Source of the DNA: Heterostelium pallidum
Lineage: Eukaryota
Assembly: GCF_000004825.1 (NCBI RefSeq)
Contig: NW_008805086.1
Coordinates: 965,410-1,029,409 of the forward strand
Direction of reading: 5' to 3'
Length of the DNA: 64,000 nucleotides
Below are positions 51,509 to 62,782 of the stretch, one piece after another. Each line of letters begins with the position of its first letter. Within the stretch, counting starts at the first letter, position 1. Below the pieces are notes generated by a model. It did no database searches. It saw nothing but the letters and a program-made list of their open reading frames with translations, and had not been told where the DNA came from. The position numbers and the translations under genes are program-made.

Positions 51509-58655
<7,147 letters not shown>

Positions 58656-58711: not shown

Positions 58712-61700
58712 TCATTTCTTTTTATTAAACTTTTTCTTTTCGTTGTTATTCTTTGAATTATTCTTTCCAATGCTGAAATTTTGAGATGAATTTGTCGTCG
58801 ACTTTGAAGATTTACTCTTTGAGTTAAAAATCATGTCAATATCATCCATATCTGCATCTTGATTTGATTGATCATTCATATCATCGCTACCAATCTTTTC
58901 TTTTTTAACTTTAACTGGTACCTTATCTTCATCTTCATCTTCATTTTCATCTTTGTTAGAATGTTGATAAATATTCTTTTGTTTCTTTAGTGGTTGTTGT
59001 TGTTGTTGTTTGGTGCTGGTAGTACTGGCACCATCATCCTCTAAGATATCTTGGAAGAGTTTTCTCTTTTTATCGGTGGTTGCTTGCGAACTTGCCCATT
59101 GATCCTTCTTTTTCTTAAAGACGTTGATGTGACAGATCAAGAGAACATAACGACCAGCGGGTGTGCTGAACAGACGTGGCTCTTCTTTGGCCAACTCCTC
59201 ACAGATCATCTCCCTAAGACTGAGATCGGATAACTTGTAGATTCTCTCCATTACAAAGGATCCGCATTTATCAACACCTATATCTGGGAATCTACCCTTT
59301 AACTTTTTGATGAACTGGTGCTTTCTCTCTACTGTGATACCGCAATCCAAGAATGCATCCAATACTTTGCTACCGACTGGATCGACTGCCATCACCACCA
59401 ACTGATCGCTTTCCAATTTCATAAAACTATCGATAATATATTGAGTGTAATCAACATTAAAGAATAACAATTTTTGTAAGATAATCGCACCACACATTGA
59501 ATACTAAAATGATTATTTAAAAAATATTAATATTAATGTTTTGCCAGTCACCTGGTAAATAATAGAAAAGAAGATAATACCTTTTTGTTCTCTGTAATAT
59601 TATGTTCAAGATATAATAACTTGTTTACAATATCTTTGATATCAGTTTGAACGTTTGGTAATACTGCTGCATTCAATATCTTTATCAACTCTCTTTGTTG
59701 TGCATTCATTCTTAAACAACATTCAACCAATTTTTGAACGATTTGACCTCTTCCCATATCTAGATATCATCAGCAGCAGTAGTAATAGATTCAATTGTAT
59801 TAATAGACAGAATCAAATACAACATATCTAAATATAAATACCTATTAGTTTTTTAAAATTGTCTTTAAGCTCTTGGATCAATGTTGCCAATTGTGCATTA
59901 TCTCTAACGTTTTCAATCAATGATTTAACAACATGATTCGATACTAAATCCTCAGAGAACTTTACCAACTGCAATCTCATCAATGAGAATATTCTTGAAT
60001 AACTTGTGTTTGGACATGACTATTTGATAACAATAAGTTAGTTAAACTATAATTATGGAATATTTATAAATATTCGTACCTTTAAAATAGATTCAAAAAT
60101 AAGAGAACCAAACTTATTATAGATAACCTCTAAGAATCTATCTTTTTCAGTTTGACCTTCATTCTGTGGTGTTAAAATGGTATCGAGAATACTGTTGAAT
60201 AGTTCGGTGTTACTGCAAGATAGCTCAATGATTGTCTTTATAGTCTCTCTTGTCTTATTGTTGAAAATCAATAAAGGTAGTTTCTCTTTCAACGTTTCAT
60301 GAATAGTAGTCAAAGCAGCTTGGATCTTCTCTTTATATGCAGTAGGTGCTTCATATGATTGAACTATTATCTCTCTTTGTTTTTCTTCTTCTGATTGCTA
60401 TAAAATTGTGTGATTTGTTTATAACTATATAAATAAAACTTCTATTGGTATCACGATATTGTTGATTACCTACATTATGTTTACTTCCTTTCGATGTTGA
60501 AAACTTCTCGGTAACGGTACCACTCATAATATTGAATAACTTTGATAATACAAATGGTGCACTTCTATCTTCAATTACACTACTGATATTTTCAACAAGA
60601 ATCTAAAAAAAAAGAAAAAAAAAAAAATATTTATTAGATAAAATAAACATAAATATTATATATTATTAATACTTACATCAACAAGTTTAAATAAGATCTC
60701 TTGGAATTTGATAAGATCAGATTTCTTGGCTTTGGCAATGATTACAGGGATTTGAACAATGATAGACTCCAACACTCTGGAACCATTGACGTGAGTGGCA
60801 ACTACCATAAAGTCGTATTGTAGCATCGAAGCAATCATGATAATCTGTGATGGCAATGCACGCTTCAAAATACCTTCTAGGATGAAACTACAGATACGAT
60901 CTGTAGCAACCAATGTTGCTTTGCTCTCGATCTCTTTCAGTGCATTCTCAATGATGATATTATGATCTAACTCGTCGGTATCGTCATCGTAATCCTTTGG
61001 TTTATCGGTGATAACCTCATTGATCTTCTCTAAATAGTTTCTGGTTTGTGTATCGACCTCTGTTACTTTGAAACTCTTCTTTTCTGTTGTAGTATCGGTA
61101 TTATCTTCATTGTCATCCTGTTGTTGTTTTTCATTGTAGAATGGGTTATCACCGCCGCCGCCTCTTTTGTTTCCACCTTCTCTTTTGGTTTGTGATTGCT
61201 GCTGTCCACCAGAGTAGAATTGATTATCGGCTGCATCCTTTCTTCTATTGTTTCCGCTGTTGTTGTTGTTTCCATCTACGCCTGGACAATCTCTTGAAAT
61301 ATGACCTGGTTGATTACATTTGAAACAATTACGATCGTTTCCACCAGCTCTACTTGAGATAGAGGACGATGACTCTGGACAATCTCTCGAAATATGACCG
61401 GTTTGATTACATTTGTAACAACTACGATCGTTTCCACCAGCTCTACTTGAGATAGAGGACGATGCCTCTGGACAATCTCTCGAAATATGGCCAGTTTGAT
61501 TACATTTGAAACAAGCACGATCATGACCAGTACTACCACCCTTTTGATTTCCTCTATTACCTCCATTATATTGGTTATTATTGTTATTATTATTTTTATA
61601 ACCACCTGACGATGCCTCAGGGCAATCTCTAGATATATGACCTGTCTGATTACATTTGAAACAAGCACGATCATTTCCTGCTCCTCCACCCGAACTACGA

Positions 61701-61885
61701 TCGTTTCCACCAGCTCTACTTGAGGAAGATGACGATGCCTCAGGGCAATCTCTCGAAATATGACCTGTCTGATTACATTTGAAACAAGCACGATCATGAC
61801 CTGTTCCTCCACCTTTTTGATTACCTCTAGGTCCTCTATTACCTTTCTTATCTATTCTAAAAAAATCATCATTATTATCTGACAT
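58712..61885 (-). CDS. Nop9-like Pumilio-repeat RNA-binding protein with six N-terminal CCHC zinc knuckles. Exons are complement(join(58712..59503,59581..59759,59842..60019,60080..60397,60474..60602,60677..61885)).
   Basis: Six C-X2-C-X4-H-X4-C units (CFKCNQTGHISRDCPE) sit in exon 1, followed by Puf-type repeats (NGSRVLESII, DPVGSKVLDAFLD, DKCGSFVMERIYK). Five AT-rich introns of 60-82 nt all keep phase. The C-terminus is a Lys/Asn/Asp low-complexity tail. Confidence 0.75.
61280..61830. repeat. Tandem ~120-bp nucleotide repeats encoding the CCHC zinc-knuckle units of the Nop9-like gene.
   Basis: The block 'ggacaatctct(c/a)gaaatatgacc.gt.tgattacatttg(a/t)aacaa..acgatc...ccaccagctctacttgagatagaggacgatg' recurs four to five times. 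Confidence 0.7.
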
Positions 61886-62155
61886 TCTGAAAAATATATA
61901 TTTATTATTAAATAAAAATAAAATAAATACAATATTTTAACCAACATTTAATTTATTCTTTGTCGTTCGTTTTTTTTTTTTTTTTTCTAAATTTTTCAAT
62001 AATTTTAATAGACCATTATTCGAACGTTACTCAAAATTTTGACTTTTGGTAATTTGGTGTGTGATCAAAAATATGAATTGAACTCTAAATTTTATTTAAT
62101 TTTTTTTAATATTTAATCATCTTTATATTATTTATTATTTTAAGTGTATAAAGAA

Positions 62156-62782
62156 ATGAGTACAACTACAACTACAACTAATACACCAGCAAACAATGCA
62201 CCGAAACCAGTAAATACAGCAAATATACCAAATTTTAAGAAATGGACAATCATATACCCACATTACATTAATTCAGAGTTGACCAAGGACGAAGGAAGAA
62301 GAACTGCTAAAGATAAATCCGTTAAGAATCCAGGTATAGAAGAGATTGCTAGATGTTGTGGTGCAGCTGGTCTGTCTGCTGTTATTGAAGTACGTTACCC
62401 CAATCCAAACTGAATAATCTATTTATCAATGAACTAATATGAAATTAAATAATACAATCAAATATAGAGTACAAAAGGTTATCCATCTGATTTCTTCCAA
62501 AGAGGTAGAGTTAGAGTTCAAATGTTAAATGACCAAGGTGCACCAATAATCCCAACTATTAAGAATAGTATGTTTTAACTACAACAATTGATAGATTTTT
62601 TATTATACTTATATTATTTCTATAAAATAGAAACTGAATTGATGTTATTTATTGCTGAAAAGATTAAATTAGTCAATCCAAATCGTCCAGAAAACTTTAA
62701 TCCAATATCATTACTAAATCTTCCCCAACCAGCAGTCAAGAAAGACAAAGAAGAAAAGAAAAAGAAGAAAGGAAAAAATTAA
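62156..62782 (+). CDS. srp19: Signal recognition particle 19 kDa protein. Exons are join(62156..62389,62468..62567,62631..62782).
   Basis: KKWTIIYPHYINSELTKDEGRRTAKDKSVKNPGIEEIARCCGAAGL and KGYPSDFFQRGRVRVQ match the SRP19 family. There is a Lys-rich C-terminal tail. Introns are 78 and 63 nt. Confidence 0.85.

Follow-up and report, generated by a model that had tools for sequence, protein, structure and literature searches.

The gene that occupies positions 58712 to 61885 of the window (the whole 64,000-nucleotide stretch of DNA that was analysed) is very probably a single six-exon orthologue of Nop9, in which internal duplication endowed the disordered N-terminal tail with a CNBP-like array of zinc knuckles that purifying selection would since have maintained. 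The gene is encoded on the minus strand and fills this interval exactly, with its ATG at 61885 and its stop codon at 58712. The preliminary description had given the same bounds and left the strand unstated. The coding region, stop codon included (58712..61885), was modelled from GT-AG junctions with matching phases and from homology that is unbroken over the junctions, and the six exons and five introns of the model yield a 934-aa product. Exon 1 (60677..61885, minus strand like all features of the gene given below) comprises 403 codons, among them the start codon, and encodes five knuckles, a linker of low complexity, the Nop9 N-terminal motif and PUF repeats R1-R2. It is followed by intron 1 (60603..60676, 74 nt, 8% GC), exon 2 (60474..60602, 43 codons), intron 2 (60398..60473, 76 nt), exon 3 (60080..60397, 106 codons), intron 3 (60020..60079, 60 nt), exon 4 (59842..60019, 178 nt, ending in phase 1), intron 4 (59760..59841, 82 nt, phase 1), exon 5 (59581..59759, 179 nt), intron 5 (59504..59580, 77 nt) and exon 6 (58712..59503). 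The last exon includes the stop codon and encodes PUF repeats R8-R11 together with a C-terminal tail that is charged and of low complexity, and whose motif D(I/E)D-x-IF-x-SKSK is common to the dictyostelid orthologues. The introns measure 60-82 nt, have a GC content of 8-26% and canonical GT-AG ends, and their phases are consistent.

The physical continuity of the two parts of the protein is given by exon 1. Indeed, a single open frame runs through the knuckles and then into the first PUF repeats, as had been claimed earlier, and a run of 403 codons without a stop has a chance probability of about 1e-13 at the local base composition. The first internal methionine of the protein is aa 350, within the PUF domain; since no in-frame methionine lies between aa 1 and aa 350, an intact Nop9 free of knuckles could not be made from this gene. 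Upstream of the ATG, an AT-rich intergenic region of 258 bp (61886..62143) leads to the divergently oriented SRP19 gene, so that there is no space for a further upstream coding exon. The genes flanking Nop9 are SRP19 and a PARP-VIT-VWA gene, and no tRNA gene was found in the window with ARAGORN.

According to the Pfam profile, the C-terminal 560 aa form a full-length Nop9-type PUF domain. The match to PUF_NOP9 (PF22493) covers aa 324-790 (genomic span 59147..60916, introns included) and positions 4-514 of the 514 of the profile, with E=7.7e-64 and 216.9 bits vs a cut-off of 27. Nop9 is a conserved and essential ribosome-assembly factor whose RNA recognition is known structurally; Nop9/APUM23 is an 11-repeat, C-shaped, PUF-like factor which, in yeast and Arabidopsis, binds 18S/ITS1 pre-rRNA during maturation of the small subunit. 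The best solved relative by sequence was APUM23 (E=1e-37). The AlphaFold model has a pLDDT >90 over most of aa 271-828, and with Foldseek its best match was again APUM23 (E=1e-20, target TM 0.79-0.81), followed by yeast Nop9 (E=1e-14, target TM 0.65-0.72), with the classical 8-repeat PUFs scoring far lower. The predicted model is a C-shaped α-solenoid with 10-11 PUM-like repeats, vs eight in classical PUFs, and 11 repeat motifs could be aligned to conserved columns of the domain. Profile, best sequence match and predicted fold thus bear out the Nop9-type identity proposed in the preliminary description, and on these grounds we assign the gene as a genuine Nop9/APUM23 orthologue of Heterostelium album PN500. 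After two dictyostelid orthologues, its next relatives were fungal proteins named 'Nucleolar protein 9' together with homologues from Chlorokybus and Cyanophora. No second H. album Nop9 was found among the best 150 of 962 family matches, a set whose clustering at 50% identity could mask a close paralogue. The protein shares with yeast Nop9, Arabidopsis APUM23 and human NOP9, which are nucleolar factors for the processing of 18S pre-rRNA, the full-length family profile, the C-shaped all-helical fold, the eleven repeat motifs and the charged C-terminal tail. In addition, a β-hairpin in the H. album model (aa 432-460) forms the R3 insertion, which sits where APUM23 has an RNA-contacting insertion and yeast Nop9 a disordered loop; the comparison of this insertion and of the fold is drawn from PMC5714250 and PMC5062617.

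The N-terminal part of exon 1 encodes five CCHC knuckles that are nearly identical to one another. Knuckles 1 (aa 34-47, 61745..61786), 2 (aa 75-88, 61622..61663) and 3 (aa 125-138, 61472..61513) all read CFKCNQTGHISRDC; knuckle 4 (aa 156-169, 61379..61420) reads CYKCNQTGHISRDC and knuckle 5 (aa 187-200, 61286..61327) reads CFKCNQPGHISRDC. Each was located by motif scan and by Pfam, where zf-CCHC (PF00098) matched in five stretches (E=5.3e-38, 127.9 bits vs a cut-off of 20.8), in agreement with the CNBP/nucleocapsid type named earlier. The zf-CCHC and NOP9/Puf profiles, whose search had been advised as a check, were therefore both matched. All five match the C-X2-C-X4-H-X4-C spacing exactly and retain the G-H and aromatic positions that are conserved in the family, and the zinc ligands are intact throughout the array (15 Cys and 5 His). 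The linkers are rich in G, R, N and S. Six almost identical knuckles had been announced: the near-identity held, but the number is five, and a six-frame scan of the entire window gave no sixth. The tail of about 280 aa that carries the knuckles appears disordered, and the pLDDT of aa 1-270 is <50 in the AlphaFold model, as expected without zinc or alignment depth, so that the knuckles draw no structural support from the model.

The DNA encoding the array is repetitive at several levels. Successive knuckles are spaced by 123, 150, 93 and 93 nt. Knuckles 1 and 2 form a pair at a 123-nt offset (94% identity by self-blastn), and a 93-nt tandem repeat (61282..61522, 2.6 copies, 92% matches; TRF and self-blastn) codes for knuckles 3-5 and their SSSISSRAGGNDR linkers. 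A higher-order duplication with a 273-nt offset (61420..61841, self-blastn) was also detected, in which the blocks 61693-61841 (aa 15-65) and 61420-61568 (aa 106-156) are 88% identical. The tandem unit of about 120 bp suggested previously does not describe this pattern. Between units, the DNA identity is 84-94%, in line with an expansion that is recent in a relative sense. A very recent one, however, is at odds with the substitutions in the knuckle cores, where pooled pS is 0.46 and pN 0.023 (ratio 0.05, from 14-22 codons per unit and non-independent pairs), pS between units reaching 0.6. Because the differences are mostly synonymous, the copies appear to be conserved, translated and not very recent. 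Hence we consider that the array has been held by purifying selection for a considerable time, the word recent being applicable only relatively. In all five units the second Cys is followed by Asn, a shared variant (…NQ[TP]GHISRDC) suggestive of a single founder that was amplified in place. The argument is supportive without being decisive; as proof of a single founder the variant was dropped, since 19% of the knuckles in the match set, itself biased, have it.

We then asked how the array is distributed among Nop9 relatives. The family was sampled by an exhaustive HMMER search, from which the best 150 of 962 matches were taken, as representatives clustered at 50% identity. Within these 150, knuckles were found in H. 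album only. The closest dictyostelid orthologues, from Synstelium polycarpum (47% identity) and Dictyostelium purpureum (38%), have PUF_NOP9 only, and the 147 non-dictyostelid representatives all lack knuckles. The earlier statement that Nop9 proteins normally lack zinc knuckles is consequently borne out by 0/149 other representatives among the best 150 of 962. A feature carried by all orthologues, which would have made the array a known trait of the lineage, can be set aside because neither these 149 nor, among them, the two closest dictyostelids have knuckles. The tails themselves also differ: at 283 aa, that of H. album is the longest among 60 aligned (median 59), and the other tails are short, basic, disordered and cysteine-free (Cys in 0/22 tabulated). 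No relative was retrieved from metagenome contigs by a protein-guided scan using aa 201-403, and a degenerate DNA pattern for C[FY]KCNQTGHISRDC had no match in environmental data. In the literature searched, we found no PUF-CCHC combination and no paper bringing 'Nop9' together with 'zinc knuckle'; a review on dinoflagellate RNA-binding proteins mentions PUF and CCHC in separate sections only. Altogether, the array appears to be a lineage-specific add-on, real but modest, and unique within the sampled family.

Could the array instead be old, ancestral to the Acytosteliales or to all Dictyostelia, and lost in the sampled lineages, with no gain specific to Heterostelium? The synonymous divergence described above is substantial, so the array is no newcomer, and old copies could stay alike through gene conversion. 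Moreover, the dictyostelid comparison rests on just two other species, visible through a library clustered at 50% identity. Nevertheless, knuckles are absent from Synstelium, D. purpureum and the 147 non-dictyostelid representatives examined, a single gain is more parsimonious than multiple losses, and the Asn variant common to the five units argues for amplification of one founder in place. We therefore regard an ancestral array as unlikely and favour a gain in the lineage leading to Heterostelium.

Concerning the source of the knuckles, a database search with the N-terminal 256 aa matched best to cellular proteins of the CNBP/Gis2/HEXBP type. The array is most closely related to these proteins, with an overall identity of 30-48% and agreement at 12/14 residues for individual knuckles; such an overall identity does not establish orthology or direct descent. 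The likeness extends to the knuckle consensus C-[FY]-K-C-N-Q-x-G-H-I-S-R-D-C, to the tandem arrangement and to G/R-rich linkers. CNBP-type proteins are, however, small (about 150-350 aa in the matches) and consist only of knuckles, which differ from one another, whereas the H. album protein is a PUF protein of 934 aa with five near-identical knuckles in its tail. It is thus unlike the CNBP/Gis2 class, which consists of small proteins of 5-8 knuckles with RG-type linkers. We conclude that the array is a putative CNBP-like module, named so by likeness, and that the protein is not, by its architecture, a CNBP orthologue. As to the possible exon shuffling with a CNBP-like gene raised in the preliminary description, a word-indexed protein search with the knuckle region disclosed no near-identical donor gene. 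This has little weight, as the search with that region missed the H. album protein itself, and the method, applied also to the PUF region and to an alignment of three sequences, missed the Synstelium and D. purpureum orthologues; its silence on further orthologues likewise means little. Other RNA-processing factors also bear knuckles, namely Air1/Air2 of TRAMP, ZCCHC9, ZCCHC17/pNO40 and Vasa-type helicases. They resemble the present case in that CCHC knuckles were added as an auxiliary RNA-binding module to a protein that acts on RNA in another way, often in the nucleolus, and differ in the partner domain, which is an S1 domain, a helicase or a poly(A)-polymerase cofactor. The knuckles of Vasa are mentioned in PMC12787238.

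Retroelement nucleocapsids typically have CCHC knuckles of the same Pfam family, and assembly trouble is possible at tandem DNA repeats, so one could imagine that the array is the remnant of a dead retrotransposon Gag/nucleocapsid, or a chimera of assembly or annotation with a neighbouring CNBP-like gene, and no working part of Nop9. We consider this very improbable. Non-synonymous divergence in the cores is 20-fold below synonymous divergence, so the copies are not decaying, and every zinc ligand is retained. From the array to the PUF domain the frame contains neither a stop nor an alternative start, and the 258-bp intergenic region adjoins the ATG. Knuckles of a Gag nucleocapsid would be expected next to LTRs or to sequence coding for capsid, protease, RT or integrase; Pfam finds none of these domains in the protein, and the flanking genes are SRP19 and the PARP-VIT-VWA gene. 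Finally, the top matches are cellular multi-knuckle proteins. The array is therefore better regarded as an integral part of the Nop9 protein.

In the annotation of H. album PN500, the locus is listed as two genes, PPL_04556 and PPL_04555 (GenBank/UniProt entries EFA82861.1 and EFA82860.1). The annotated first gene corresponds to a read-through of intron 4 to a stop (…KKLIGIYI*), and the second one begins at a Met just past that intron. It is hardly credible that PPL_04556 (knuckles and a truncated PUF) and PPL_04555 (an independent C-terminal PUF fragment from MGRGQ…) are separate genes, as GenBank and UniProt give them and as the stop met in intron 4 and the Met after its acceptor site would allow: each half is an incomplete Nop9 domain, and end-to-end coverage of the PUF_NOP9 profile is reached by the joined product only; the 82-nt interval has GT-AG ends, the right phase and the AT-richness of the other four introns; and the joined model has a pLDDT >90 over the junction (aa 611; AlphaFold). 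Furthermore, the alignment to APUM23 and to the Synstelium and D. purpureum orthologues is unbroken at every junction and runs straight over that of intron 4 (NFKKLI-D-MGRGQIVQKLVE vs EFKTLIVRGRGQIIQKLVE in the alignment). We thus predict that the public annotation wrongly divides a single gene, with a product of 934 aa, into PPL_04556 and PPL_04555. The exact joined sequence has no entry in a collection of 15 billion proteins, and PPL_04555 and PPL_04556 are not mentioned in the supplements of a dictyostelid transcriptome re-annotation paper. The merged gene model bears on orthology tables and on domain-architecture statistics.

We propose the following scenario for this single Nop9 gene. One founder knuckle unit would have given rise to the array through internal tandem and higher-order duplication, with offsets of 93, 123 and 273 nt, and a short basic Nop9 tail would thereby have grown to about 280 aa with five C-X2-C-X4-H-X4-C knuckles. 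As judged from their domain family, the knuckles may have an RNA-binding or chaperone role: tethered beside the N-terminal PUF module, they would provide additional low-specificity binding or chaperoning of RNA that is single-stranded or rich in G. The array could thus add avidity for pre-rRNA or aid its remodelling, as a structured counterpart of the basic tail of other Nop9 proteins. In published work, the pre-rRNA duplex is placed beside the N-terminal repeats of Nop9, and affinity was found to be raised, independently of sequence, by a 3' single-stranded segment (PMC5062617, PMC7373996). We speculate, as an outside possibility, that the array gives Nop9 a second, CNBP-like activity, by which G-rich or structured stretches of mRNAs or of pre-rRNA spacers would be unwound, or bound selectively by sequence or structure. 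If so, the change would amount to a rewiring, in a single lineage, of a core factor of small-subunit assembly, perhaps offsetting a changed spacer structure or a lost separate factor. Alternatively, the array may simply add non-specific affinity.

The significance of the finding is modest, because domain accretion of this kind is common in eukaryotes. As a natural variant of Nop9 in which a predicted single-strand-binding array replaces the short basic tail, the H. album protein could nonetheless show the share of the tail in pre-rRNA recognition, and it could show how accessory RNA-binding modules join a core machinery by the amplification of repeats in place.

The Nop9 gene of Heterostelium album (Polysphondylium pallidum) PN500 lies on the minus strand, with its ATG at 61885 and the last base of its stop codon at 58712. 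The preliminary description had marked out 58712-61885 with no strand, and these positions proved to be the exact ends of one gene. The gene model, assembled by hand and then script-checked, places exon 1 at 61885-60677, exon 2 at 60602-60474, exon 3 at 60397-60080, exon 4 at 60019-59842, exon 5 at 59759-59581 and exon 6 at 59503-58712 (all minus strand), and the joined product has 934 aa. The five introns (60-82 nt, GC 8-26%) all begin with GT and end with AG, and their phases are consistent. Exon 1 comprises 403 codons without any stop (p ~1e-13 by chance at the local base composition), and the PUF_NOP9 match starts at aa 324, still within this exon; the uninterrupted frame from the knuckles into the PUF repeats, read earlier by eye, thus holds. 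Moreover, the first in-frame Met after aa 1 is aa 350, already within the PUF domain. As no in-frame Met lies between these two positions, a complete Nop9 without the knuckles is impossible to make.

We then considered the nature of the PUF region. As the preliminary description had anticipated, the Pfam profiles for both parts of the protein were matched: zf-CCHC in five stretches (E=5.3e-38) and PUF_NOP9 (PF22493; E=7.7e-64) over profile positions 4-514 of 514. Among proteins of solved structure, Arabidopsis APUM23 is the closest in sequence (E=1e-37) and aligns over ~540 residues with no break at any exon junction of the gene model. In an AlphaFold2 model built from a 60-sequence alignment, pLDDT exceeds 90 almost throughout aa 271-828, and is below 50 in the knuckle tail (aa 1-270) and in the C-terminal tail. 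A Foldseek search of this fold against the PDB ranked four APUM23 structures first (target TM ~0.8), then yeast Nop9 (0.65-0.72), with the classical eight-repeat PUFs far below. Eleven repeat motifs were located at the conserved family columns, in agreement with the 11 repeats of yeast Nop9 (PMC5062617, PMC7373996). Judged by sequence and predicted structure, the H. album protein is a genuine Nop9 orthologue. In the model, repeat 3 of the PUF domain also carries an inserted β-hairpin (aa 432-460; ~60398-60590, minus strand, coded partly across intron 2), at which pLDDT falls to 54-76. At this position APUM23 carries an RNA-contacting insertion (PMC5714250), and the loop of yeast Nop9 is disordered (PMC5062617).

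The knuckles encoded by exon 1 number five rather than the six first counted; all have the form C-X2-C-X4-H-X4-C (aa 34-47, 75-88, 125-138, 156-169 and 187-200), and scanning the window in all six frames gave no further one. The sequence is CFKCNQTGHISRDC in three of them, with F→Y in one and T→P in another, and the metal-ligand residues are intact in all five. Nor is there a regular ~120-bp unit: successive knuckles are 123, 150, 93 and 93 nt apart, and TRF reports a period of 93 nt (2.6 copies, 61282-61522). Self-comparison revealed a higher-order duplication at an offset of 273 nt (aa 15-65 resembling aa 106-156, 88% identity), and knuckles 1 and 2 form a pair at a 123-nt offset with 94% identity. 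Pooled synonymous and non-synonymous divergence between copies was pS 0.41 and pN 0.078 for the 22-codon units, and pS 0.46 and pN 0.023 (ratio 0.05) for the 14-codon knuckle cores. That the copies differ mostly at synonymous positions indicates purifying selection on the translated knuckle sequence.

We examined the family by an exhaustive HMMER search of the PUF region against 1.84 billion representatives clustered at 50% identity, which returned 962 Nop9-family matches at E≤1e-3. Among the best 150 of these, a regular-expression scan found a CCHC knuckle only in the H. album protein, bearing out the view that Nop9 proteins normally have none; knuckles in every orthologue, which would have counted against the preliminary description, were thus not seen. 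The two closest relatives, a 791-aa protein of Synstelium polycarpum with 47% identity and XP_003286824 of Dictyostelium purpureum (760 aa, 38% identity), lack knuckles and match PUF_NOP9 alone in Pfam; subsequent matches were chytrid and mucoromycete 'Nucleolar protein 9' proteins and homologues from Chlorokybus and Cyanophora. The N-terminal tail of 283 aa is the longest in the 60-sequence alignment (median 59) and holds 15 Cys versus 0 in each of the 22 other tails tabulated; other Nop9 proteins have a short, basic tail, with KRRGKRGGK-type motifs in chytrid sequences. As far as sampled, with two other dictyostelids, the array thus appears confined to the H. album lineage. The preliminary description is partly confirmed, and its core interpretation of a Nop9 with a knuckle array is supported. 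The combination is already discernible in precomputed database annotations, and we found no description of it in the literature.

At the other end, a short motif, D-[IE]-D-x-I-F-x-S-K-S, is common to the C-termini of the three dictyostelid orthologues (DDIDMIFNSKSKS, DEIDAIFSSKSTS, DEIDEIFNSKSKK; in H. album aa ~890-934, 58712-58900, minus strand), within charged tails that are otherwise unalignable. The motif may serve as a signal for docking or localisation.

Where did the array come from? The idea that it is an upstream gene fused by mis-annotation is ruled out, because the ATG adjoins a 258-bp AT-rich spacer shared with the divergent SRP19 gene. In a word-indexed search, which was incomplete to the point of missing the query itself, the N-terminal 256 aa matched cellular CNBP/Gis2/HEXBP-type proteins best (30-48% identity), and a single knuckle can share up to 12 of its 14 residues with theirs. 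Pfam detected no retroelement domains in the protein, and its neighbouring genes are not those of a retroelement. All five knuckles share one variant, in which Asn follows the second Cys (NQ[TP]GHISRDC), and the DNA repeats are nested, which points to amplification in place from a single founder unit, for which a CNBP-like gene is a candidate source. The expansion is recent only relative to the deep dictyostelid splits; the substantial synonymous divergence (core pS 0.46) means that the copies are not very young.

The SRP19 gene (62144-62600, plus strand) contains an intron, its first exon matches Pfam SRP19 (E=2.5e-13), and the spacer is likely a bidirectional promoter. On the left (51849-58655, plus strand) lies a vault-PARP-like gene by appearance, with an odd architecture. 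An intron interrupts its PARP catalytic region, dividing it between the ORF 51849-53291 and the beginning of the ORF 53346-58655. Next come VIT (E=6e-36) and VWA domains and a 14-3-3-like domain that is full-length (profile positions 7-220 of 223, E=1.3e-22). Beyond these lie extended tracts of low complexity, a motif resembling WH2 and the RNA-polymerase-II-CTD-type heptad YSPTSPS in seven perfect copies (DNA repeat 57618-57766, period 21, 7.1 copies). A 14-3-3 domain and CTD heptads are unusual within a PARP-VIT-VWA protein.

In yeast, Nop9 engages the 3' end of 18S/ITS1 through two modules, of which the C-terminal one reads single-stranded RNA and the N-terminal one touches duplex; a flanking single-stranded segment gives additional sequence-independent affinity (PMC5062617, PMC7373996). 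By analogy with the CCHC knuckles of CNBP, Air1/2 and nucleocapsids, we infer that the five knuckles, which would be tethered beside the N-terminal module, may act on pre-rRNA as additional binders of single-stranded RNA or as chaperones.

Finally, two public models lie within this gene: PPL_04556 (615 aa), which comprises the knuckle array plus the N-terminal half of the PUF region and terminates …KKLIGIYI*, and PPL_04555 (322 aa), beginning MGRGQ…. The split arises because the annotation reads through intron 4 (59760-59841, minus strand, 82 nt), unrecognised in both. At this junction the orthologue alignment is unbroken (NFKKLI-D-MGRGQIVQKLVE in H. album versus EFKTLIVRGRGQIIQKLVE and HFKNLFSIGRGLVVQKLLE), the APUM23 alignment is likewise continuous, and only the joined product covers the PUF_NOP9 profile completely; on these comparisons we conclude that the two models are a single gene. 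The exact 934-aa sequence was not found in a collection of 15 billion proteins. The most concrete outcome of our analysis is thus a corrected Nop9 gene model, and other H. album gene models may contain the same kind of missed-intron error.
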